The notes beneath the pieces are model-generated. The model was not told where the DNA came from. It saw nothing but the letters and a program-made list of their open reading frames with translations, and ran no database searches. From assembly GCA_036397855.1 (NCBI GenBank), contig DASWID010000101.1, positions 289 to 64,288 of the forward strand: 64,000 nt of DNA. Reading direction: 5' to 3'. This document shows positions 12,845 through 43,266 of the stretch, in pieces (the first letter of the stretch is position 1; each line of letters opens with the position of its first letter). The position numbers were made by a program, and so were the translations under genes. This stretch comes from Thermodesulfobacteriota bacterium. GTDB lineage: Bacteria > Desulfobacterota_D > UBA1144 > Nemesobacterales > CSP1-2.

Positions 12845-13492
12845 ATGATGATAATGAATGCACCAAAGTGTTTCATTAGTTATTCATGGGATAATGATAA
12901 TCATAAAGATTGGGTTAGATTTTTAGCTTCTGAGTTAAGAGCTAGAGGGATCGATGCAAGACTTGATCAGTGGGATACTAAGCTGGGAATAAACCTTCCA
13001 GAGTATATGGAAACCTCAGTTCGTGAATCTGAATACGTCTTACTTATATGCACACCCTTGTTTGCTGAAAAAGCGAATAAGGGTTCTGGGGGTGTAGGCT
13101 ATGAAAAAACAATTGTAACTGGCGAAATATTTTCTGGTGTATCATCCAAGACAAAATTTATCCCTGTTCTTCGTAGTGGTAGCGAATCTGAAGCCATTCC
13201 TTCGTATCTCAGGGGTAAATTTTATATCGATTTTAGAAATGATCAGAATTTTAATGATTCAATTGATAAATTAATAAGAAATATTTTTGATGCTCCAGAA
13301 CACCCACCTCCACCGATTGGAAATCGGCCAAAATTTAATACACAGAGTGCTGGAGTGCGATCGGCACAGAAGGAGGTTCACTTTGACATTACGCGCTTTA
13401 GTAATGCATTTGAATATGCTATAAGCTACAATGGGTTAAGAATGGGAAGAGATGAGGCGCGTCAATGGGCTCTACGAAGATTGGAAGAATAA
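12845..13492 (+). CDS. TIR-like (SEFIR/TIR_2-type) domain protein
   Basis: N-terminal FISYSWDND...WV.FLA.ELR.RGID..LDQWD...YVLLICTP...GGVGYE pattern typical of bacterial TIR/SEFIR folds; ~70-aa C-terminal extension. Confidence 0.7.
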   Translation: MMIMNAPKCFISYSWDNDNHKDWVRFLASELRARGIDARLDQWDTKLGINLPEYMETSVRESEYVLLICTPLFAEKANKGSGGVGYEKTIVTGEIFSGVSSKTKFIPVLRSGSESEAIPSYLRGKFYIDFRNDQNFNDSIDKLIRNIFDAPEHPPPPIGNRPKFNTQSAGVRSAQKEVHFDITRFSNAFEYAISYNGLRMGRDEARQWALRRLEE

Positions 13493-14656: not shown

Positions 14657-14707
14657 TTACTGGCGGCGGGAGGAATCGAACCTCCGACAAAGGCCTTATG
14701 AGAGCCC
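14657..14707 (-). repeat. attR: 3' half of the intact tRNA-Met plus 4 flanking nt
   Basis: Identical to 9961-10011. Confidence 0.85.
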
Positions 14708-14732
14708 TGCTCTACCTCTGAGCTACGCCGCC
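14661..14732 (-). tRNA. tRNA-Met (anticodon CAT)
   Basis: Cloverleaf folded by hand: acceptor GGCGGCG/CGCCGCC, D-arm GCTC..GAGC, anticodon loop CTCATAA, T-loop TTCGATT; CCA not encoded; anticodon stem has two G-U pairs. Confidence 0.8.
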
Positions 14733-14899
14733 AAGGTTAGTATTTGGAGTATGTTTCAAGCCAACATAAGGATATTTAACAGTTTTTCTACGCGGGGTTT
14801 ATTTTTATATGTTGATCTGGTCAGTATATCATGGCGGGTCTAACTTTCAAGACGAAACTAGCTTTTTTGTAACAAATTGGGGGTATTAGAAGCGAAATA

Positions 14900-14928
14900 A
14901 ATTTTCCTCTTGACAGATTAAGTAACGT
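14900..14928 (+). promoter_or_regulatory. consensus sigma-70 promoter TTGACA-17-TATAAT
   Basis: Perfect consensus hexamers with 17-nt spacer. Confidence 0.7.
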
Positions 14929-14934
14929 ACTTTA

Positions 14935-15030
14935 TAATCACTTTTAAATTTAAATTTTCAACTTAATGCACTTCATCCTTTATCCTCCTTTAAAGTGGGA
15001 ATGTTTCTAAATCTGGGAGCATTCCCTCTT
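14935..15030 (+). ncRNA. candidate small RNA, copy A (CU-rich anti-SD core AUCCUCCUUUAA + hairpin terminator)
   Basis: Between the promoter at 14900 and the hairpin gtgggaatg...cattccc (14995-15028); about 75% identical to 25512-25605. Confidence 0.5.
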
Positions 15031-15065
15031 AATTCATAAAAATAGCTTCGTTTAAGATTTAATGG

Positions 15066-15902
15066 TTACTTTAAACTTAAGTATTTAGATGGATTTAGTT
15101 TTTTGCCGTTTTTTATTATTTCGTAGTGCAGGTGTGTTCCAGTGGATCTTCCTGTGGAACCTGCGTTACCAATTAGATCTCCACTCTTAACCCTTTGTCC
15201 TTCGTCTACATCTACCTTCGTTAGGTGTCCATAAAGTGTTTGATATCCATTTTCGTGATTGATTATGACGGTATTTCCATAACTGTAATACCAACCTGCG
15301 TTAGTAACTAATCCATCAGCAGTCGCAAAAACTGGTTGTCGAGGTTTCGCTTCGAAGTCTATTCCGGAGTGAAAAGCCGGGGCAGCTCTAAAAGGATCCA
15401 TTCGATATCCAAAACCTGATCTGACATCGGATTTTATGATGGGCTTACCCAAGGGAAAACTCTTAATCGTATTAAACATTTCATATATATCCTTTTCCAT
15501 GTTATCAAGATAGGATAAATCCAATCCGTCGGCCGGGATGTACTCACCTCCCACGGCCAATTCTCTCTTTATACCCTTTCTGTCAAGTAACTCTTGCATT
15601 TCCAAGAGTTTCTTTTCGATTTCTATTAACCTGGATTTCAATACAAGTTCATCCTTGCTCATTTCATTTAATACATTGGACTGACTTTTTAGTTGGTCGG
15701 CCAGTTCTCTTTTCTGATGGGTACTTATTTCAGCTTTTTTGTAAAATTTATATGCAATAATGAAAGATAGAAGTGATACCAACGTGAGTCCAAAAAACGT
15801 GATCAGCATTATTTTAATGTGGTACAGTTTTATGTTAAGGAATTTTGGTACCGTGCATTCAAATTTAAATAAATGAATTTTAAGATTTTCCCGCGTCATC
15901 AC
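15066..15902 (-). CDS. M23 family peptidoglycan DD-metalloendopeptidase with N-terminal coiled coil
   Basis: HxxxD/HxH zinc motifs (HSGIDF...NHENGYQTLYGHL...THLHYEI); TM anchor. Confidence 0.85.
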   Translation of the reverse strand: MMTRENLKIHLFKFECTVPKFLNIKLYHIKIMLITFFGLTLVSLLSFIIAYKFYKKAEISTHQKRELADQLKSQSNVLNEMSKDELVLKSRLIEIEKKLLEMQELLDRKGIKRELAVGGEYIPADGLDLSYLDNMEKDIYEMFNTIKSFPLGKPIIKSDVRSGFGYRMDPFRAAPAFHSGIDFEAKPRQPVFATADGLVTNAGWYYSYGNTVIINHENGYQTLYGHLTKVDVDEGQRVKSGDLIGNAGSTGRSTGTHLHYEIIKNGKKLNPSKYLSLK

Positions 15903-16262
15903 CCATCCTCCTTTACAATAAGGTTAAATTATTGACCTATAAAGCGATTGATCCCCGGACTATGTTTGTGATTCTAAAATTTCGGGAACCAATATAACAT
16001 ATTTTAAAAGAGGTTTACAATACCAGATTTAAACAATTGAAATTTTGCTCCTATGTAGGAGGGTGCAGACCATGCATAATACTTCAAAAAAGAAACAGAT
16101 TCAAAAGAAGACCCATATTACTATTCAAACTACTTTGGCGTATCTCGTTTATGATCTTGCGATGGTGTTATTTATATAGTGTCAGTATAGAATTGACTCA
16201 AGAGCGATTGTGAAAGTCATCTTAAAAATTCTTTAACAGTCGATGTGGGTTTGAAAGTTGAT

Positions 16263-16703
16263 ATGGTACTGAAATTCCTTATTACTTTCTCATTAGCGAT
16301 AAATTTTGTCGCAGCCTCAAATGCGGGGGCGAAAATAGTGGTAAGCGATGCCTGGATAAGAGAATTACCCCCTAGCTCGTCGGTTACAGCGGCATACATG
16401 ATTATTGAAAATCTTGGCAACGATGATGACAAGCTCACAGGGATTAATGCTAGCTTCGCGGGGCACGCAGGGATTCATACAACCCAGATCGACAATAATG
16501 GAATTGCACAGATGAAGATATTACGAGAACTGGTAATACCATCAGGTAAAAAGGTAGTATTAGAACCGGGTGGAACGCATATAATGCTCACTGACATAAC
16601 TGAACCAATTAAAAGGGATGATACGCTAAAGCTAGAGTTAATGTTTGAAAGAGAGGGAATGAAAGAGATTAGTGTGAAGGTTAAGGGATTAACTGGTGAC
16701 TAG
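16263..16703 (+). CDS. copper chaperone PCu(A)C (DUF461)
   Basis: Signal peptide; conserved H...M...H.M copper-binding pattern (AGHAGIH...THIML). Confidence 0.65.
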   Translation: MVLKFLITFSLAINFVAASNAGAKIVVSDAWIRELPPSSSVTAAYMIIENLGNDDDKLTGINASFAGHAGIHTTQIDNNGIAQMKILRELVIPSGKKVVLEPGGTHIMLTDITEPIKRDDTLKLELMFEREGMKEISVKVKGLTGD

Positions 16704-17025
16704 CTGATGGGACCTAGATTCTAATATAATTAGAATCTCAATTTGCTATTTAACCAATCCATTGAGTAGAGACTACTTTAAGTCATTGTAAGATCTGATA
16801 AAAAATCTCCCGGTTACCACGGACGCAAGTTCTCCCGCAAGGGCAGGTGGGTACTTATCAAATAATAGTTAAAGACCGGTTTGGGAATTCAAGGGAAGCT
16901 ACTATTCCTAAAGGACAGACTACCACAGTTAGTGAGGGTAGAGACGGGGAGCTTCGGATTAATATCCATATAATCATAATCTGTAGAATCCTTCAACATG
17001 TTCACTACGCAAAAAGTAATATTTG

Positions 17026-17610
17026 TTATTCATTCGCTTCTTCCCATGCTTTCCACAGTTCTTCTATATTTTGACTTCTAGCAAAGTCCTCTTTGTAGTG
17101 TTGAGGATTAATCTGCCAACTCATGAATCTATGGAATACAATACTAAGCTTTTCCTTTACCAAGTAAGGATCAAATCCCCAAAACATATCCCATGTTCCA
17201 CCCAAGGGAAAAAAGATTTTGTAGAAAAGGACCTGCTTTGGTTCTAATCTATCATATGAAATCAACCCTGTCCGAACAAAGCCATAACCCATTCCGAAAT
17301 TAAAGGCTAAATTTTCACTGTTAAGCCCAAGCCTTTTTGCTGCCATCATAGCAAGCACGGTAAATACATACAAGGCTTCGGATGTAGCATATCCATATTG
17401 GGAAAGCTTCTCATCCATCTTAATAATTTTTGACATAAGCCATTCATATTCTTCTCCAATAAGCCACTTAAAATCCTTCAGATCCTCGTAGTTAAACTCC
17501 CCTATATCACCGCACATCTCAAAGGAGCATCTCAAGTCCTCCCATTCTCTTGTGATTATCTGATAGGTTTTATTTAGTGAAATCGGTAAACTAAATGACA
17601 TATTTCTCAT
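17026..17610 (-). CDS. hypothetical cytoplasmic protein
   Basis: ORF only. Confidence 0.4.
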   Translation of the reverse strand: MRNMSFSLPISLNKTYQIITREWEDLRCSFEMCGDIGEFNYEDLKDFKWLIGEEYEWLMSKIIKMDEKLSQYGYATSEALYVFTVLAMMAAKRLGLNSENLAFNFGMGYGFVRTGLISYDRLEPKQVLFYKIFFPLGGTWDMFWGFDPYLVKEKLSIVFHRFMSWQINPQHYKEDFARSQNIEELWKAWEEANE

Positions 17611-22317: not shown

Positions 22318-23301
22318 TTATTTCAATTCATTCAGTTTTTTTTGGAACGCTCTTAATTTATCGATAATATGATCGAACGTGGGATATGCACCGAAAATCA
22401 TTTCCTCCATCGCTTCGTAATCTTCCATCAATGACTTAAGCCTTGATTCGTCGGGTATTAGCTTTATTGTTCTAGGGGTTGCCAGATCATATTTTGCCCA
22501 ATTACTGTAATAAAAACGTTTTTTAAAATTCACAACATCATCCAACAACTTCAAATTCTTTAATCCCTTCATCTCAATATCTGTATCCAACATTTTATAA
22601 ACATCATAATAATGCCTCGAATAACGAGCTGGATGTGACTTTCCAGCTGGCCTGTGTGCCTCAACATGCAGTATTGTTACTTTCTCCCAAAATGTTCTTT
22701 CAGGAACGATAGAAACGACGTTAGCAAACGAATTTTCAAATTTTTCTGGAAATACCTCTGCTGCATAAGGCCGTATCGAGTATTTAGAGCACGGAACCAT
22801 TGAACTGATGGGCCCAATTTCTAATCGTATTTCTGGCCGCAAGTATGTACCAGAAAAAAGTTTGGGATATTGGATAATAACTGTTTGCCCATCGTATGAA
22901 TCCACTCTTGCGTCGCACGGCGGTTGCATTAAACCATTCAAAATGGGCAACAAGTCTCTGCCGATATAGTCCTCCGCTAATTTGTTTAATTTCTTGTTGA
23001 AAATATCTTGTTGTGTGTTGCTTCGGCCTTCGTATGGATCCTCATCGGTCAACACCGACCAATCTAATACCAAATCTATATCTTCTGAAAAACGATCAAT
23101 TACTTGGAAGCACTTTGAGAGAGTTGTTCCACCTTTAAACCTAAACAACTCTTTTAGGTCGTCATCCTCGAAGAGCTTCATTAATGCCCAGCAGATCCAA
23201 AAGTCTTTTTCTATCGCTGCTCCTTGCATCCCTTTACGTGCAGCTGTTTCAAGAAAAAGTTCTTCACGCTCGTTTTTGTTAAAAGTAGCTACTTTCTTCA
23301 T
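22318..23301 (-). CDS. AbiEii/AbiGii nucleotidyltransferase toxin (DUF1814)
   Basis: FKGGTTLSK...RFSEDIDL nucleotidyltransferase motif; 4-bp overlap with the upstream AbiEi gene. Confidence 0.8.
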   Translation of the reverse strand: MKKVATFNKNEREELFLETAARKGMQGAAIEKDFWICWALMKLFEDDDLKELFRFKGGTTLSKCFQVIDRFSEDIDLVLDWSVLTDEDPYEGRSNTQQDIFNKKLNKLAEDYIGRDLLPILNGLMQPPCDARVDSYDGQTVIIQYPKLFSGTYLRPEIRLEIGPISSMVPCSKYSIRPYAAEVFPEKFENSFANVVSIVPERTFWEKVTILHVEAHRPAGKSHPARYSRHYYDVYKMLDTDIEMKGLKNLKLLDDVVNFKKRFYYSNWAKYDLATPRTIKLIPDESRLKSLMEDYEAMEEMIFGAYPTFDHIIDKLRAFQKKLNELK

Positions 23302-23906
23302 TCCTTATTTTTAAATATAGCTTTAATAATTTCATAGACCCAGCTTGTTGTGTATTTTGTATCTTTCAAAATACGCCCGTGTTTTTCGGAACGAAAATAA
23401 TTGAATATGGTTTGCCTTTGTTGTTTGGTCAGTGTTTTATTACCTAATGCTTTAATCGCTTGAACCACTAATTCACTCTCTGGGTATTTCAGACCTATAT
23501 CTTTTAAGGTTGTTTTCTTAAATTCCAGTTCAATATTGCCAATCTGATACACCTTACTCTTACCATCAGTGTAGTAAAGATATTTAGTAGGAACCTGTGT
23601 TGATAGACCTAACACGTTCAACGCCGCATTACCTGAAATCTGAATTTTCCATCCAAATTTCCGGGCGAAAACCTGTGCCACTTGATCAACGTCTGGGCTT
23701 AAATCTTGCTCTAATAATTTGCTGTATTTTGGGTAATCGTATATACCACGTATAACCCTGCGAATGTGACCTTTATCTAATAAGCGACTCAAAACCTTAT
23801 CAATGGTATTTGCATTCCCCAAATCGGCAAAATCATTTTTGAAAAACGCCCAACCCCTACCATTGCCATAAATCCTGCTTATTACTTTATTTTCAATGGA
23901 TTGCAT
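23298..23906 (-). CDS. AbiEi family antitoxin / transcriptional regulator
   Basis: N-terminal ISRIYGNGRGWAFFKNDFADLG...IRRVIRGIYDYP pattern of AbiEi (DUF6088-like). Confidence 0.75.
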   Translation of the reverse strand: MQSIENKVISRIYGNGRGWAFFKNDFADLGNANTIDKVLSRLLDKGHIRRVIRGIYDYPKYSKLLEQDLSPDVDQVAQVFARKFGWKIQISGNAALNVLGLSTQVPTKYLYYTDGKSKVYQIGNIELEFKKTTLKDIGLKYPESELVVQAIKALGNKTLTKQQRQTIFNYFRSEKHGRILKDTKYTTSWVYEIIKAIFKNKE

Positions 23907-24039
23907 AATTTTAAGCTTATTATTCTGTCAGAAAAAAGATACCATTTTTCTGACAGGAAACAAGTATTTCCTGATCATGCACTGAGTGTTTTAACTGATG
24001 GGATTGAGGTTGTGAGTTGAATTAGAGACAGAGTTGTGT

Positions 24040-24153
24040 ATATATACCTAACTCTGTCTCTAATCTCGCGGAGTGATGAATTATGTTACAATAGTGTGTT
24101 GTATGATGGTTTGTATATATACCTTACCATCATACAACACACTATTGTAAAGA
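24040..24153 (+). promoter_or_regulatory. two perfect palindromic operators (11-bp arms gagacagagtt/aactctgtctc; 24-bp arms ttacaatagtgtgttgtatgatgg/ccatcatacaacacactattgtaa)
   Basis: Read directly; both spacers contain gtatatatacct; immediately upstream of the ATG at 24156. Confidence 0.7.
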
Positions 24154-24155
24154 AA

Positions 24156-25040
24156 ATGAAGCGAACTCAAAAAGATTGGGCTTCCGAGTTTCGAATTTAC
24201 CTACGGGAAATTCCGCCAAAGGTATTTAGCTGCGTAGAGCTCGAACCCCTTTTTGATAATCTTAGGAGACGAAAGATCCTTCCCTCTCGACTTAGCTATA
24301 ATAAATTTCTAGCTGAAGTAATAAGTAGAAATATGATTAATAAAACCAACATAAGATATGTGGGCAAAGCAAATTCGAGAAGAAAAGAGTTTATCCGCTA
24401 CACCTATAAGTCACCCTCATCATTCTCTATTGCATTATCACTACGTTCGAGGAGTTATCTATCTCATATCAGTGCATTGTTTTTGCATGGTCTGACTGAG
24501 CAGCCCCCCGAGACAATAATTGTAAACAAGGAACAGTCTGCAAAGAACAGTTCAAACGAATTAACCCAAGCGGGTATAGACCGAGCATTCAAAAAAGCCG
24601 CTCGTCAATCTAATTATATCTGGGCGTGGAAAGATTCGCGTTTTATACTTTTGAATGGAAAACAAACTGGGGATTTTGGAGTCATCAATATAAAAATTGA
24701 CACTGGAGAGCATCTTCGAGCTACAAACCTCGAGAGAACATTGGTAGACATTGTCGTAAGACCTAGCTACTCCGGAGGGGTAATTGAGATAGTAGAAGCT
24801 TATCGACGTGCTCGAAAAGTCCTTTCCACAAAGAAAATTGTTCAAATTTTAAAGCGACTAGACTATGCATACCCATATCATCAGTCTATAGGATTCGTGA
24901 TGGAACGTGCAGGTTTCGAGAAACAACAGTTAGATCTACTTAGGAATGAAGGTATCAACTTTGACTTTTATCTTGACTATCAGATCAGAAATAAGGCCTA
25001 CGACGATACTTGGAGATTATATTTCCCAAAGGGGCTTTGA
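24156..25040 (+). CDS. AbiEi-like winged-helix regulator (orphan antitoxin-like)
   Basis: YLSHISALFLHGLTEQ motif resembles the AbiEi N-terminal wHTH; start moved from 24036 to Met41 because the annotated N-terminus covers the palindromes. Confidence 0.5.
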   Translation: MKRTQKDWASEFRIYLREIPPKVFSCVELEPLFDNLRRRKILPSRLSYNKFLAEVISRNMINKTNIRYVGKANSRRKEFIRYTYKSPSSFSIALSLRSRSYLSHISALFLHGLTEQPPETIIVNKEQSAKNSSNELTQAGIDRAFKKAARQSNYIWAWKDSRFILLNGKQTGDFGVINIKIDTGEHLRATNLERTLVDIVVRPSYSGGVIEIVEAYRRARKVLSTKKIVQILKRLDYAYPYHQSIGFVMERAGFEKQQLDLLRNEGINFDFYLDYQIRNKAYDDTWRLYFPKGL

Positions 25041-25280
25041 TTTATTAAGCTCGAAACGCAGCAAAGAACTTTTAATTAATTTCGATCATTGTGAGTTTTT
25101 TATTTATTTCGAAATAAGTTGGTATCTAGTTTTTGTATTGCATTTTTCTTAGCTTCTTGCTTTGTGAGGCTCAGATATTTATCTTGAAAACTATAATAAC
25201 TCAAGAAAGTTTGTAGCCAAATCTGTAGCCCATTGAAATTGATGAGGAGGCGATAGGACGTAACCCCCTGATTTTATTGG

Positions 25281-25356
25281 TGGAGATGAGGGGATTCGAA
25301 CCCCCGACCTCCGCCTTGCGAAGGCGGCGCTCTCCCAAACTGAGCTACATCCCCAC
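25281..25356 (-). tRNA. tRNA-Ala (anticodon CGC)
   Basis: GGGGATG acceptor with G3-U70, anticodon loop TTCGCAA, T-loop TTCGAAT, CCA encoded. Confidence 0.85.
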
Positions 25357-25476: not shown

Positions 25477-25505
25477 TTGACAACTTAAGTAAATTGCTTT
25501 ATATT
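25477..25505 (+). promoter_or_regulatory. sigma-70 promoter TTGACA-17-TATATT
   Basis: Near-consensus hexamers with 17-nt spacer. Confidence 0.65.
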
Positions 25506-25511
25506 AATATT

Positions 25512-25605
25512 CAGACTTAATTTGAAAACTTAAATCATCCTCCATCCTCCTTTAAGATAGTGGGAATGTTTCTAAACCCTTTAGGTCATTCCCACTTTTC
25601 TTTTT
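25512..25605 (+). ncRNA. candidate small RNA, copy B (anti-SD core + strong intrinsic terminator)
   Basis: Promoter at 25477; terminator gtgggaatg(25560-68)...cattcccac(25587-95) with inner ctaaa/tttag stem and ttttcttttt tail. Confidence 0.6.
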
Positions 25606-25724
25606 AATACCACTGATTATCTTTGATAAAGTATTTATATCGTAATTATCGACGAGAAAACATCTGAGATTGATTCATATCACCATGTTCCCAGTGAAAT
25701 GATTTCGCCCTTCTTTGTAAAAGC

Positions 25725-27212
25725 TCACTTTGATGCTGCTACTGCTCGATCTGATGCCCATCTCTCTAATCTGGAAATCTCTTCACGCATGGTTGTAGAG
25801 AGTGGAACTATAGAAGATGCTGCGATTATGAGTTCTCTCTCATCCAATTCCTTTTGTTTTGAATAGGCTTCAAAAAGGGCAGAGACCACAACCTGTTCAA
25901 TCTCTGAACCGGAAAGTCCTTCAGTGTTCTTGGCAAGGGAATCTATATCGAAAGAGTCGGGATCCTTATGGCGGTTGACAAGATGAATTCGGAATATCTC
26001 TTTTCGTGCTTTTTTTGATGGTAGGGATACGAAGAAGATCTCATCAAACCTGCCCTTTCTCAAGATCTCTGGCGGTAGCAAGTCGATTTGATTTGCAGTG
26101 GCAGCTATAAATACGGGGTATTTCTTTTCCTGCATCCAGGTAAGGAAAGAGCCGAATATCCTCGATGCGGGACTATCGCTTGTCTTTTCTCCGCTTCTTG
26201 TGATCCCGGCCTCAATCTCGTCTATCCATAGCACACAGGGAGAAATTGTCTCAACGGTCTTTATTGTGTTTCGAAAGGCTTCTTCGGGTGTTCCAAATAT
26301 GCCGCTATAAAGTTGATTTAGATCGAGCCTCAATAGCGGTAAATTCCAAACAGAAGCGACAGCCTTAGCACATAAGCTCTTACCACAACCGCTAATTCCC
26401 ATTATCAGTAATCCCTTTGGCATGTCAAGGCCGTATTGCCTGGCATCGGGGGCAAATGCTAATGCCCTGGTTTTTAGCCATTCCTTAAGATTTTCAAGTC
26501 CGCCAATGTCATCCAAGCCTACTCTACCTCTGATGTATTCCAGTGTTCCGATTCTATTTATTAAGAGAGCCTTCTCATCCATGAGGGATGTAACAATCTC
26601 TTCTTCACTTCTTTCTTCTCCATCCAGCAGAATCCTCTTTAGAGCAAATTTCATTTCGGAAGATGCAAGACCCTGCAAAGCGTGAACGCATTTTTCCCTG
26701 AACTCGGGGGTATAGTGATTTTGATGGCTTTTATCTTTAAGTGGACTTGTCACTTCGTCAAATATTATCCTGGCATCATCTGAATCTGGAAGTCCAATTT
26801 CGAATATGGTCATTTCCCTTTCTAGTTCAGCGGGAAGGACTACAGAGGGTGAGACGATGAATAGGGTTTTAGAGCTACTTTTCAAGGTTTGGTGCAGGTC
26901 TTTCAATTCTCTTATTATCTTTGGGTCCTTAAGAAAAAAGTGAAGGTCTTTAAAAAGAAAGAATCCCTTTTCATTGGTCTCTTGAACTTTTTTCAAAGCA
27001 CTCAAGGCGTCGTTGATTCCTTCTGATTCTCCATTCTCGCCACTAAACCCGTTGGTACAGGACCAGGAGTATACATTGTAATCATCACGGAACGACTCCT
27101 TCGAAAGCAGTCTCAGCGACTCCTCGACACGTTCTTCTTCCCAACTAACAAGGTAGATAAGTGGATATTCAGCCCTTATAAAACTTGCTATTTTTTCAGA
27201 TGGAAATGCCAT
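25725..27212 (-). CDS. AAA+ family ATPase with an uncharacterised N-terminal domain
   Basis: Walker A GISGCGKS, Walker B LWIDEIE, and an arginine-finger region in the C-terminal half. Confidence 0.6.
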   Translation of the reverse strand: MAFPSEKIASFIRAEYPLIYLVSWEEERVEESLRLLSKESFRDDYNVYSWSCTNGFSGENGESEGINDALSALKKVQETNEKGFFLFKDLHFFLKDPKIIRELKDLHQTLKSSSKTLFIVSPSVVLPAELEREMTIFEIGLPDSDDARIIFDEVTSPLKDKSHQNHYTPEFREKCVHALQGLASSEMKFALKRILLDGEERSEEEIVTSLMDEKALLINRIGTLEYIRGRVGLDDIGGLENLKEWLKTRALAFAPDARQYGLDMPKGLLIMGISGCGKSLCAKAVASVWNLPLLRLDLNQLYSGIFGTPEEAFRNTIKTVETISPCVLWIDEIEAGITRSGEKTSDSPASRIFGSFLTWMQEKKYPVFIAATANQIDLLPPEILRKGRFDEIFFVSLPSKKARKEIFRIHLVNRHKDPDSFDIDSLAKNTEGLSGSEIEQVVVSALFEAYSKQKELDERELIIAASSIVPLSTTMREEISRLERWASDRAVAASK

Positions 27213-40554: not shown

Positions 40555-43266
40555 ATGAATAAAAATGTTCTATATCTTATCGATGGCAGCTCCTACATAT
40601 TTAGAGCATATCATGCCATCAGAAAACTGAGTAATTCAAAGGGATTTCCTACAAACGCTATATACGGGTTTACAAACATGATTTTCAGGTTTCTAAAGGA
40701 TTATGAGCCCGAGTATCTCGGAATTGTTTTTGATTCAAAGGGGAAGACGTTCAGGGACGAAATCTACCCGCTTTACAAAGCCAACAGGGAAGAGCCACCT
40801 GATGATCTCAAGCAACAGTTTCCAAAGATTTTTGAGGTGGTCGATGCGTTGGCCATACCGAAGTTTCAACTAGAGGGTTATGAAGCGGACGATCTTATAG
40901 GAACAATAACAAGGGATTCGGTGAATAAGGGCGTAAGGGTTGTACTCGTTACCGGAGATAAGGACTTCAGCCAGCTTGTTTCAGAGACTGTTACACTCAT
41001 CGATACTATGAGAAATAAAGAAACTGGTTATAAAGATGTTCTCGAAAGATTTGGTGTTCCACCTGAAAAGGTAACGGATGTCTTTGCCCTTTCCGGAGAC
41101 TCTATTGACAATATTCCGGGTGTGAAGGGTATCGGTGAAAAAACTGCAAAGGAGCTGATCAGTAAATATGGGTCTTTAGAAGGTTTATTTGATAACCTTG
41201 ATAAACTGAGCAAGAGGCAAAAGGAGCTCATAGAAAAAAATACAGAGAATGCAATGCTGAGTAAAAGGCTTGTAACCATCAAAACCGATGTTCCCATAAA
41301 ATTCAGTCTCGAGGATTTTAGATTTCGAGGTATTGATAAGGGCAGGCTTGGAAAGCTTTTTGACGAGCTGGAGTTCAAATCCTTACTGCGTGAACTAGGC
41401 GAGATCGATAATTCTGCTGTGGAAAAATCTAAGAATAATAATATCAAAAGTGAAGTTTATTACGATAACTATCGTCTGGTGTTGTCTGACGATGACCTGG
41501 CGAAAGTAATTGATCGAATAAAAGAGGGGGGAGAGGTCTCCATAGATCTTGAGACTACATCTCCGGAGCCTATGAGGGCTAAAATCGTCGGGGTTTCCCT
41601 TTCTACTGCATCGCATGAGGCTTGCTATGTACCCGTCGCTCACAGGTCTCTAGTCGATTCCAGACAACAATTAAGTCTTGATCATGTTCTTGAACGGCTG
41701 AAATCAATCGTTGAAGATGAGAGAGTCAATAAAATAGGTCAGAACCTGAAATACGATTATATTGTCCTCGAAAAATATGGATTAAGACTTCGGGGAATCA
41801 TCTGTGATACCATGATTGCGGCGCATCTACTGGATTCTTCCAGGATGAGCTATAGCTTAGATGAGCTTGCGAAGATCTACCTTGGTCATAACACAATTAC
41901 CTATAAAGACCTCACAGGGTCCGGAAGGAGTAAGATTGATTTTGAAGAGGTGGAGTTGGAGAAGGCTAAGGTGTATGCCTGCGAGGATGCCGATGTTGCT
42001 ATGTTACTCTTCAAAAAACTCGTTCCATTACTTCAAGAACTTAACCTGATAAAGGTTTTCAAAGAAGTTTATCTTAGGTTAATTGAGGTTCTCGCAAGGG
42101 TGGAAATTAATGGTGTAAAAGTAGACTCCTCTCGTTTAAAGGAATTATCTATGGAGTTCCAAGCTGGACTGGAAAGCCTGGCAAGTGACATATACTCCCA
42201 GGTTGGATATGAGTTTAACTTGAATTCTCCCATCCAGTTAAGGGAGGTATTATTTGGTAAACTGGTTTTGCCCAAGAAAAAGCTCACAAGGACTGGCGAA
42301 CCTTCTACCGATGTCGATGTGCTTAATGACCTAAGCAGACTGCATCCGGTTCCCGAGAGAATACTCGAATTCAGGGGGCTCTCAAAGCTTAAATCAACCT
42401 ACGTGGATGCGTTGCCGAAGCTCATCAACCCCGAAACGGGAAGAATACATACCTCTTTCAACCAGGTGGGAACCTCCACGGGGAGGGTCAGTTCTAGCGA
42501 TCCTAATCTGCAAAACATTCCTATAAGATCCGAGGAAGGCAAGAGGATCAGGGAAGCCTTTGTTCCCGAAGAGGGGTTCATACTTCTATCGGCAGATTAT
42601 TCGCAAATAGAGCTGAGGCTCCTTGCGCATTTCTCTGGTGATGAGGGGCTTCGGAATGCATTTAAAGCTGGAAGCGATATCCACAATCGAACTGCTTCTG
42701 AGATCTTTGGCGTCCCTGAAGATATGGTAACCCCTGATATGAGAAGACTTTCAAAGAATATCAACTTCGGGATTATCTATGGAATAAGCGCCTTCGGGCT
42801 CGCGAGGCAGCTTGGCACCTCGGTTTCAATAGCAAAAAACTATATGGATGAATACTTTAAGCGTTATAGCAGTGTAAAGAAATATATGGACGAATCGGTT
42901 AGAGTTGCGCAAGATAGGGGCTATGCGGAAACAATTCTTGGAAGGAGAAGGCCAATACCAGAGCTGGGATCTACCGACAGGACCGTCCGAGGTATCGGGG
43001 AAAGGACAGCCATCAACACGCCGATTCAGGGTTCTGCTGCAGACATTTTGGAAATTGCTATGGTGAAAATACATGACAAATTGGCTTCAGGCTATAAGTC
43101 CAACATGATTCTACAGGTTCATGATGAACTTTTATTTGAGGTTCATGAAGACGAACTGGATGTAATTTCGAGGATGGTAAAGGAGGAAATGGAGGGTGCC
43201 TTTACCCTTGAGGTTCCTCTGAGGGTAGATATAGGAGTGGGTAAGAGCTGGGCAGAGGCTCATTAG
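40555..43266 (+). CDS. polA: DNA polymerase I
   Basis: 5'-3' exonuclease, 3'-5' exonuclease and Pol A palm motifs (DYSQIELR, QVHDELLFE); 903 aa. Confidence 0.95.
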   Translation: MNKNVLYLIDGSSYIFRAYHAIRKLSNSKGFPTNAIYGFTNMIFRFLKDYEPEYLGIVFDSKGKTFRDEIYPLYKANREEPPDDLKQQFPKIFEVVDALAIPKFQLEGYEADDLIGTITRDSVNKGVRVVLVTGDKDFSQLVSETVTLIDTMRNKETGYKDVLERFGVPPEKVTDVFALSGDSIDNIPGVKGIGEKTAKELISKYGSLEGLFDNLDKLSKRQKELIEKNTENAMLSKRLVTIKTDVPIKFSLEDFRFRGIDKGRLGKLFDELEFKSLLRELGEIDNSAVEKSKNNNIKSEVYYDNYRLVLSDDDLAKVIDRIKEGGEVSIDLETTSPEPMRAKIVGVSLSTASHEACYVPVAHRSLVDSRQQLSLDHVLERLKSIVEDERVNKIGQNLKYDYIVLEKYGLRLRGIICDTMIAAHLLDSSRMSYSLDELAKIYLGHNTITYKDLTGSGRSKIDFEEVELEKAKVYACEDADVAMLLFKKLVPLLQELNLIKVFKEVYLRLIEVLARVEINGVKVDSSRLKELSMEFQAGLESLASDIYSQVGYEFNLNSPIQLREVLFGKLVLPKKKLTRTGEPSTDVDVLNDLSRLHPVPERILEFRGLSKLKSTYVDALPKLINPETGRIHTSFNQVGTSTGRVSSSDPNLQNIPIRSEEGKRIREAFVPEEGFILLSADYSQIELRLLAHFSGDEGLRNAFKAGSDIHNRTASEIFGVPEDMVTPDMRRLSKNINFGIIYGISAFGLARQLGTSVSIAKNYMDEYFKRYSSVKKYMDESVRVAQDRGYAETILGRRRPIPELGSTDRTVRGIGERTAINTPIQGSAADILEIAMVKIHDKLASGYKSNMILQVHDELLFEVHEDELDVISRMVKEEMEGAFTLEVPLRVDIGVGKSWAEAH

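Follow-up and report, generated by a model that had tools for sequence, protein, structure and literature searches.

Background

Several bacterial small RNAs (sRNAs) that occur in multiple copies and carry motifs complementary to the Shine-Dalgarno (SD) sequence repress by blocking access to the ribosome-binding site (RBS), as has been described for NfeR1/alpha-r14 (PMC10746234) and for the cuckoo family (PMC4615179). NfeR1 represses by pairing its anti-SD motifs with translation initiation regions (PMC4615179, PMC10746234), and it is an open question whether the cuckoo RNAs are global translational repressors or are selective for certain RBSs (PMC4615179). In RoxS/RsaE, FsrA and CsfG of the Firmicutes, accessible C-rich regions bind the mRNA targets (PMC8216469). 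We describe here two related loci, copy A and copy B, in a stretch of 64,000 nucleotides (nt) from a Thermodesulfobacteriota bacterium (contig DASWID010000101.1; this whole stretch is referred to below as the window), each of which has, like the last-named RNAs, the layout of a stand-alone gene with its own promoter and a Rho-independent terminator. Judged from their sequence and that of their homologs, copies A and B are members of a new predicted sRNA gene family, of an already known kind, that is specific to Candidatus Dadabacteria, a widespread uncultured class of soils, sediments, groundwater and ocean.

We consider it moderately probable that the two copies are stand-alone genes for a trans-acting sRNA of about 90 nt that would block SD-led translation starts by pairing with them, and base pairing with SD regions in general is the best-supported reading. 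We infer the transcription of the sRNA, its action by base pairing, the resulting repression and the mRNAs that are hit.

Results and discussion

A conserved family of small-RNA genes

We scanned one genome per species (GTDB) with the core pattern TCATCCTNNATCCTCCTTTAA and retrieved at least 120 loci; the loci cited by L number in this report come from genome and metagenome scans and consist of the match and its flanks rather than of whole genomes. In the scan of one genome per species, at least 107 of at least 124 exact-core matches carry a TTGAC(A/T)-17-TAnnnT promoter, and then a hairpin (this count includes both window copies and L001, which is the same metagenome locus as copy B). Among the matches listed, the promoter spacer is 17 nt long (16 nt in six cases), the end of the -10 box lies 29-34 nt from the core in most, the hairpin follows 2-6 nt 3' of the core, and there are one to four copies per assembly. 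Tandem copies occur in L049, L095/L032 and L121/L093. The other 17 exact-core matches, from Firmicutes, one archaeon and other groups, are the reverse complement of an SD sequence plus ATG and have no family promoter.

The family loci come from at least about 48 assemblies assigned to Candidatus Dadabacteria, Thermodesulfobacteriota or 'Deltaproteobacteria', with a few bins otherwise labelled; in the NCBI taxonomy, Dadabacteria is a class of Thermodesulfobacteriota. The closest genome among the matches listed, CAWDVW01, has orthologs of copy B (L068) and copy A (L088) together with a third paralog (L122). Taken together, the genome and metagenome scans yield about 170 distinct copies that share the promoter, the core and a covarying terminator, and the proposal of the initial annotation, which was made from the window only, is thereby upheld: the unit is no chance promoter but a real small-RNA gene, conserved and independently terminated.

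Neither copy matches a family of Rfam 15 at the gathering threshold in a scan of the whole window, which returned only tRNAs and noise, and a permissive scan (E<=10) over 14700-15100 gave no match to an sRNA family; a literature search that combined Dadabacteria with small RNA brought up nothing relevant. A covariance model (CM) built from the homologs, R1, picked up a further, variant copy in sequence flanking other loci (L022, 269-374, with the core ACATCCTCCATCCTCCTT-AAAG). The same model gives 27-bit matches at L011:1013-1119 (-) and L026:4669-4781 (-), in which CCACCAUCCUCC or UAUCCUCC is followed by a strong terminator without the family promoter; these may be more distant anti-SD sRNAs of the same genomes.

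Structure of the predicted RNA

Applied to an alignment (A2) of 104 distinct copies, RNAalifold predicts a single helix, that of the terminator, with 11 pairs, 10 of which show compensatory double changes; the comparison across homologs that the initial annotation had suggested as a check thus bears out the terminal hairpin. Cells of this helix are paired in 95.6% of cases, versus 36-57% when the 3' partner is slid, and its covariation score is 0.453, versus 0.19 in shuffles. The consensus tail is U-rich, with full U tracts in most copies. With its short A/U-rich 5' part, accessible 21-nt pyrimidine stretch and intrinsic terminator, the predicted RNA is laid out like a classical trans-acting sRNA.

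A conserved 5' hairpin (UUAAGU/ACUUAA) was considered and rejected: RNAalifold does not predict it, its only informative pair is broken in about two-thirds of the sequences, and covariation is absent (position 44 varies, and C52 is fixed). This element is better read as a DNA dyad than as an RNA structure. A CUUAA/UUAAG helix that would enclose the core as a loop can form in 92% of cells; it consists of five weak pairs that show no covariation, and we regard it as unlikely.

Invariance and accessibility of the core

For an ascertainment independent of the core, metagenome contigs were scanned with the promoter alone (TTGACANNTWAAGTANNNTACTTTAT), which gave about 70 distinct sRNA-bearing matches. 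The exact core is present in 59 of these and eight deviate only at core positions 1, 2, 20 or 21, the inner 17 nt being intact in 67. The core is composed of two tandem CAUCCUC units plus CUUUAA. In L144 it is short by exactly one 7-nt unit, and in L172 and L203 it reads CAUCAUCUCUCCAUC(C/A)UCCUUC; the 3' unit, AUCCUCCUU(U), survives even where copies diverge (window copy A, L022b, L172 and L203). This conservation extends across genomes whose orthologs of the M23 peptidase encoded beside copy A share only about 50% identity.

Partition-function folding of 95 predicted homolog transcripts gives the core a mean unpaired probability of 0.8-0.95, and none of the predictions contains an alternative anti-terminator fold. 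The core also outlives a change of promoter spacer: L052, L061, L077, L109 and L110, a sub-lineage, have another spacer (TTGACTTCTTGCT...) without the dyad that is described below, and because the core persists behind these dyad-less promoters its function is independent of the dyad (in L077 and L109, moreover, the terminator loop is longer and the CC of the 5' repeat is replaced by UA). Among small open reading frames (ORFs) on both strands, no frame is common to copies A and B or to the paralog types.

Layout of the two copies in the window

The promoter and terminal hairpin that had been proposed for copy A are both present, as is a second copy, proposed as about 75% identical and lying at 25477-25605, for which pairwise alignment gives a mean column identity of 78% (Table 1). 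The R1 model matches copy A with 76.8 bits (14937-15048) and copy B with 95.1 bits (25504-25615), and the core pattern and the hairpin arm are each enriched in the window (0 of 100 shuffles reach the observed counts). A full-sensitivity CM search found no third copy in the window. A 21-bit match at 15861-15943 was rejected, being the antisense of the M23 start region without a hairpin, and there is no sRNA copy at 16700-17030, where relatives hold another paralog beside a homolog of ORF 17026-17610.

The two copies share an A/U-rich 5' part of about 25 nt and a core of the form UCAUCCU(UU/CC)AUCCUCCUUUAA. The core that had been called invariant is in place in both, but the two versions differ at two positions, which read UU in copy A and CC in copy B and nearly all homologs. 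Because UU replaces CC, copy A is without the 5' CCUCC: its 5' repeat has decayed to CCUUU, and its 3' anti-SD repeat, AUCCUCCUUU, is intact. The predicted start of the copy A transcript was placed 7-8 nt past the -10 box and its end at the tail 3' of the hairpin; about 27 nt of A/U-rich sequence separate the promoter from the core, and AGT stands between core and hairpin. The U tail of copy A is weak (UCUUAAUUCA, 15027-15036, the sequence 3' of the hairpin being TCTTAATTCA).

Table 1. Coordinates of the two sRNA gene copies, their parts and their neighbors in the window
Feature	Position	Strand	Description or basis
Copy A unit	14910-15036	+	Promoter, A/U-rich 5' part, core and terminator hairpin, in this order
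A/T-rich tract, UP-element-like	14896..14909	+	5' of the copy A -35 box; from sequence
Copy A promoter, TTGACA-17-TATAAT	14910..14938	+	-35 box 14910-14915, -10 box 14933-14938; 12/12 consensus
Copy A spacer dyad, TTAAGTAacgTACTTTA, operator-like	14918..14934	+	Symmetric information content in 99 homologs
Copy A predicted transcript, ~91 nt	14946..15036	+	Promoter geometry and terminator; CM match
Second dyad-like element, TTAA-N8-CTTAA	14950..14966	+	Initial transcribed region of copy A
Copy A core, TCATCCTTTATCCTCCTTTAA (RNA UCAUCCUUUAUCCUCCUUUAA)	14973-14993	+	Sequence; predicted unpaired
Copy A terminator hairpin, GGGAAUGUUUCUA/UGGGAGCAUUCCC, 13 pairs	14997-15026	+	Family helix covaries
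Copy B unit	25477-25605	+	Same element order as copy A
Copy B promoter, TTGACA-17-TATATT	25477..25505	+	-35 box 25477-25482, -10 box 25500-25505
Copy B spacer dyad, TTAAGTAaatTGCTTTA	25485-25501	+	Homolog position-frequency table and window motif search
Copy B predicted transcript, ~93 nt	25513..25605	+	Ends inferred from promoter and U tract
Copy B core, TCATCCTCCATCCTCCTTTAA (RNA UCAUCCUCCAUCCUCCUUUAA)	25535-25555	+	Two tandem CAUCCUC units; equals the family consensus
Copy B hairpin	25560-25595	+	Followed by TTTTCTTTTT
Copy B intrinsic terminator, stem GUGGGAAUG...CAUUCCCAC then UUUUCUUUUU	25560..25605	+	Sequence, fold and covariation
tRNA-Met(CAU)	14660-14733	-	Divergent from copy A; syntenic neighbor in at least 17 related genomes
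M23 peptidase gene	15066-15899	-	Downstream of copy A, convergent
M23 start region, GUAAAGGAGGAUGGGUGAUGA (AAAGGAGGAUGGGUGAUG)	15897..15917	-	Best candidate core pairing site in the window
tRNA-Ala(CGC)	25278-25354	-	Divergent from copy B; same arrangement in L009 and L051
AAA ATPase gene	25725-27212	-	Downstream of copy B, convergent

Proposed mechanism and candidate targets

In the mechanism that we propose, the sRNA would be transcribed from its near-consensus sigma-70-type promoter, the 17-bp spacer dyad of which is probably the operator of a putative regulator, and transcription would end at the intrinsic terminator. The single-stranded 21-nt core (UCAUCCUCCAUCCUCCUUUAA, with two CAUCCUC units) would present two CCUCC anti-SD motifs and pair with RBSs of the AAAGGAGG(AU) type, the 5' UCAU also reaching the start codon in the best cases; the 30S subunit would thereby be denied access to the mRNA, whose translation would fall, with mRNA decay as a possible consequence. 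The unit is probably an independent one, in that the window copies face convergent genes, tandem copies exist and downstream genes have -10-like motifs of their own.

The complementarity to a strong SD sequence that was claimed for the core is found in its 3' repeat, AUCCUCCUUU, which is the exact complement of the AAAGGAGG(AU) type in use in this genome (AAAGGAGGAU); taken as a whole, the core is the antisense of an idealised start region with AAAGGAGG, a 7-nt spacer and AUGA. When the first ATG is naively taken as the start of each gene, GGAGG precedes 12 of 50 starts in the window, in half of the cases as AAAGGAGG.

The best candidate pairing site in the window, the start region of the M23 peptidase gene, departs from the core pattern by three mismatches. 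Its RNAduplex energies are -25.0 kcal/mol (copy A) and -29.8 kcal/mol (copy B); apart from the sRNA genes themselves, no site in the window forms a better duplex, although an intragenic one at 43169-43200 equals it. The true start of this gene is likely the ATG at 15899 and not the GTG at 15902. As a separate observation, the region is complementary to the sRNA core with one mismatch plus G-U pairs. The extended complementarity is found in the window and its closest relatives, L088 and L026, only and is absent in 12 other orthologs; M23 was therefore rejected as a family-wide target, the gene being syntenic in more than 20 genomes and the extended match being confined to three lineages.

Genomic context and inheritance

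The initial annotation placed a tRNA gene 170-300 bp away on the opposite strand at both copies. The strand is as described, and the distance from the tRNA to the -35 box (177 bp) agrees at copy A, but at copy B it is only 123 bp. The suggestion that the copies lie next to integration hotspots does not survive comparison with related genomes. The tRNA-Met/sRNA pair is an orthologous synteny in at least 17 genomes and each paralog keeps its own neighbor; such paralog-specific conserved synteny argues for vertical inheritance and not for tRNA-linked integration. No integrase was seen beside either window copy in the ORF lists.

Three old paralog lineages can be told apart by terminator sequence, each with its own synteny. 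Type 1 (GAGAACGGGAG...) lies 5' of a gene for a 248-amino-acid (aa) lipoprotein at 40 loci (this protein has no Pfam match). Type 2 (AAGGGAAUGC...) lies between a divergent tRNA-Met(CAU) and a co-directional SCO1/SenC gene at 41 loci, with the convergent M23 peptidase gene further on in more than 20 genomes. Type 3 (GAAAGAGGAAGC...) is often tandem and lies 5' of a UPF0176/rhodanese (TrhO-like) gene at 18 loci. Copy A is the local type 2 descendant, and the SCO1 gene is missing there; a gene for a PCu(A)C copper chaperone is present beyond M23, at 16245-16703 (+). The tRNA-Met-linked paralog sits in a conserved copper-chaperone neighborhood that is rearranged in the window lineage.

A further paralog type (L122:5275-5387, L004:6048-6160 and L030:3373-3485) has ATG directly 5' of the core (AUGUCAUCCUCC...) and a terminator stem followed by CAUAAAUCA, with no U tract; the gene opposite it is convergent, encodes 182 aa and has window ORF 17026-17610 as a homolog. 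Copies A and B are 10.6 kb apart in the window versus about 6.2 kb in CAWDVW01 (L068/L088), so that about 4.4 kb between them are variable and may be a small defence island. A gene for a TIR/SEFIR-domain protein (12845-13492 (+)) lies upstream of tRNA-Met, and genes for a DUF6088/AbiEi-like protein (23298-23906 (-)) and a 334-aa neighbor (24036-25040 (+)) lie just before tRNA-Ala.

Promoter, dyad and candidate regulon

A position-frequency table of 99 homologs, anchored on the -35 box, has an upstream A tract, AAAA(T/A)T(A/T) at -10 to -5 relative to that box, followed by cTTGACA. A 17-bp dyad, TWAAGTA-N3-TACTTTA, fills the spacer and overlaps the -10 box, with information content that is symmetric in both halves. 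The second element, TTAA-N8-(A)CTTAA, lies about 5-21 nt into the transcript, and its center is 32 bp from that of the first dyad (about three helical turns). Together the two look like putative operators of a dimeric DNA-binding protein.

In the window the dyad is present at the two sRNA promoters only, and in about 1 Mb of related loci it is found at sRNA genes only (94 of 94). The metagenome promoter scan located the same promoter/dyad module 5' of protein genes as well: about 120 nt upstream of tuf (EF-Tu) in L132 (-), upstream of a GspC-like gene of the type II secretion system in L123, L140, L162, L163, L193 and L241, 5' of PilM/GspL-like genes in L149, L151 and L221, and 5' of a gene for a 251-aa protein in L190. 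Some of the module-bearing contigs are GC-rich downstream and may be from other lineages. The shared module suggests a regulon of a putative DNA-binding protein and, as a marker of tuf and of genes for secretion or pili, gives an entry point to the study of transcriptional regulation in Dadabacteria. Two side observations concern starts near these promoters. In the GspC-like gene (L123:3396-3460 and homologs) the ATG comes right after ACTTAA, about 25 nt from the predicted transcription start, with no SD. In TrhO-like genes 3' of type 3 copies, such as those of L032 and L038, only about 12 nt separate TATAAT from the ATG, which makes them nearly leaderless in appearance.

Weighing the alternatives

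Several points weigh against the proposal that this RNA pairs with SD-led starts. The sRNA is a prediction from DNA sequence, and its hosts have been met with in metagenomes only. A search of 1.7 Mb of related DNA (flanks of sRNA loci) brought up no conserved specific target, and only 21 sites there have at least 11 contiguous complementary nt. Regulation by an abundant RNA that attaches to any strong SD would, besides, be crude. Copy A, with its decayed 5' repeat and weak U tail, may be less active. Generic SD pairing needs about 6-9 nt, which does not obviously explain 17-21 invariant nt across divergent genomes, and invariance of this kind suits a protein or another invariant partner at least as well. 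Because the invariance exceeds the needs of SD pairing, we keep a protein decoy or mimic of the 16S tail as the main rival. The RNA would then be a decoy or part of a ribonucleoprotein, its CAUCCUC units binding a protein that recognizes pyrimidine tracts or the 16S 3' tail (for example, ribosomal protein S1, bS21, a KH-domain protein, or a 16S maturation or modification factor), which would be titrated or delivered with no pairing to mRNA. We consider this unlikely: no candidate protein is linked to the loci, the neighbors of which vary by paralog (SCO1, the lipoprotein, the TrhO-like protein), and base pairing is the mode of action of every characterised sRNA with CCUCC-type motifs (PMC10746234, PMC4615179). 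It would nevertheless account for an invariance, among paralogs as well as genomes, beyond what an 8-nt SD match needs, for the failure to find a conserved mRNA target and for a tandem-repeat core of the sort typical of multimeric RNA-binding proteins, of which L144 lost exactly one unit; the presence of the same promoter/operator module 5' of tuf also hints at co-regulation with the translation apparatus. A related proposal, which we hold to be just as doubtful, is that a mimic of the 16S 3' tail is made in bulk from at least three genes that have near-consensus promoters and share an operator with tuf, and sets SD-led versus SD-less translation genome-wide; the route, no less speculative, would be competition with the 30S subunit for every strong SD or titration of a factor that recognizes the 16S tail. 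Such a global role would suit both the invariance over 17-21 nt and the lack of conserved specific targets. The sRNA would then govern initiation globally and in trans, rather than regulate a few targets, and the SD-less GspC-like and TrhO-like genes behind the same or neighboring promoters would be candidates to escape its control.

It is less probable again that the element is a cis-acting 5' leader or attenuator that controls read-through into a co-directional gene (SCO1/SenC, the 248-aa lipoprotein or the TrhO-like rhodanese) via the CU-rich stretch. The possibility of a role in cis arises, as a further point against the trans-acting sRNA, from the same-strand ORF that lies about 110 nt downstream in 116 of 152 copies (at a median of 112 nt from the hairpin), and each paralog type retains its own downstream gene in many genomes. 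However, the next gene is convergent in the remaining 36 of the 152 (the two window copies plus 34 others), and the three families of downstream genes have no relation to each other. Conserved -10-like motifs (GGGTAATATATTA and CAGTTATAAT) stand between the terminator and the same-strand genes, and tandem copies, full U tracts in most copies, a core that stays unpaired and the lack of any predicted anti-terminator fold all sit badly with attenuation. For the two window copies, the scenario named in the initial annotation as one that could overturn it, in which the region is a mere divergent promoter or leader, lacking conserved structure, that serves the M23 or tRNA genes, is excluded: both downstream genes are convergent and the hairpin covaries. 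We think it very improbable that the feature belongs to the minus strand, as the start of a tiny ORF or an antisense element. The reverse complement, UUAAAGGAGGAUGGAGGAUGA, does read as a perfect translation initiation region (SD, 7-nt spacer and AUG), and the 17 matches outside the family are exactly such regions; but the ORFs so begun have 2-10 codons and lack conservation (copy A, MKCIKLKI; copy B, MI; other types, MIFKYCV or MTC; each followed by a stop), the conserved promoter and the U tract are both on the plus strand, and on the minus strand the hairpin is preceded by an A run with no U's after it. Least credible of all is a repeated promoter or DNA element without RNA function, or a chance resemblance: the module does occur 5' of protein genes too, but the hairpin, with its compensatory changes, bears the mark of RNA-level selection, the core is kept where the promoter spacer differs (the five loci with the dyad-less spacer), and shuffles never reach the observed counts. 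An sRNA that pairs with SD regions is thus the reading with which we compare known systems.

Comparison with known systems

The nearest kind is the cuckoo family of the Alphaproteobacteria (alpha-r14/NfeR1, SmelA075/A099 and RSs0680a-d, the last being CcsR1-4; RF02344). As in that family, the Dadabacterial genes are multi-copy and in part tandem, the only invariant sequence is a repeated, anti-SD-like pyrimidine motif, the stem varies in a compensatory manner, and subsets hold conserved synteny. The cuckoo motif, CCUCCUCCC, lies in the loops of two to four adjacent hairpins, whereas the Dadabacterial motif, CCUCCAUCCUCC(UUUAA), lies in one single-stranded linker; CCUCCUCCC is absent from copies A and B and from the family consensus, and there is one covarying helix only, the terminator, with the motif outside it, in place of the several hairpins of a cuckoo RNA. 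The RF02344 model has no match in the window at the gathering threshold and none at E<=10 in 14700-15100. The class of the hosts and the promoter are also different, and there is no DUF1127 partner gene.

The sRNAs of the Firmicutes with C-rich regions usually have G-rich RBSs as target sites, and the Rsa RNAs of Staphylococcus aureus carry a UCCC motif. Seeds of the RoxS/RsaE type are CCCC or UCCC runs, mostly in loops, and the RNAs are single-copy; the Dadabacterial core has CCUCC and no CCCC runs, and the family has at least three paralogs per genome. The RsaE/RoxS model, RF01820, gave no Rfam match to the window copies, and sequence similarity to these RNAs is likewise absent. Membership in either the cuckoo or the RoxS/RsaE family was accordingly rejected on motif, structure, Rfam model and taxon.

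The 3' tail of 16S rRNA (...GAUCACCUCCUUU...) and the sRNA core share what we take to be the same recognition sequence, AUC(A)CCUCCUUU, and would presumably recognize the same mRNA sequences; no Dadabacterial 16S 3' end was found among the retrieved loci. Unlike the rRNA tail, the motif is doubled here and belongs to a predicted transcript of about 90 nt with its own promoter and terminator, in a window where the Rfam scan found no small-subunit rRNA. Anti-SD elements that act in cis, in riboswitch platforms and RNA thermometers, likewise have a CU-rich stretch complementary to the SD, but they pair with the SD on their own transcript, whereas the predicted Dadabacterial transcript has neither SD nor ORF and its terminator follows directly. 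The family supplies a covariance model for annotation and a testable candidate for a post-transcriptional regulator. It would be, after the cuckoo RNAs, a second and independent case of multi-copy sRNAs built on repeated anti-SD motifs, so that the question of global versus selective repression can now be compared in two unrelated lineages.

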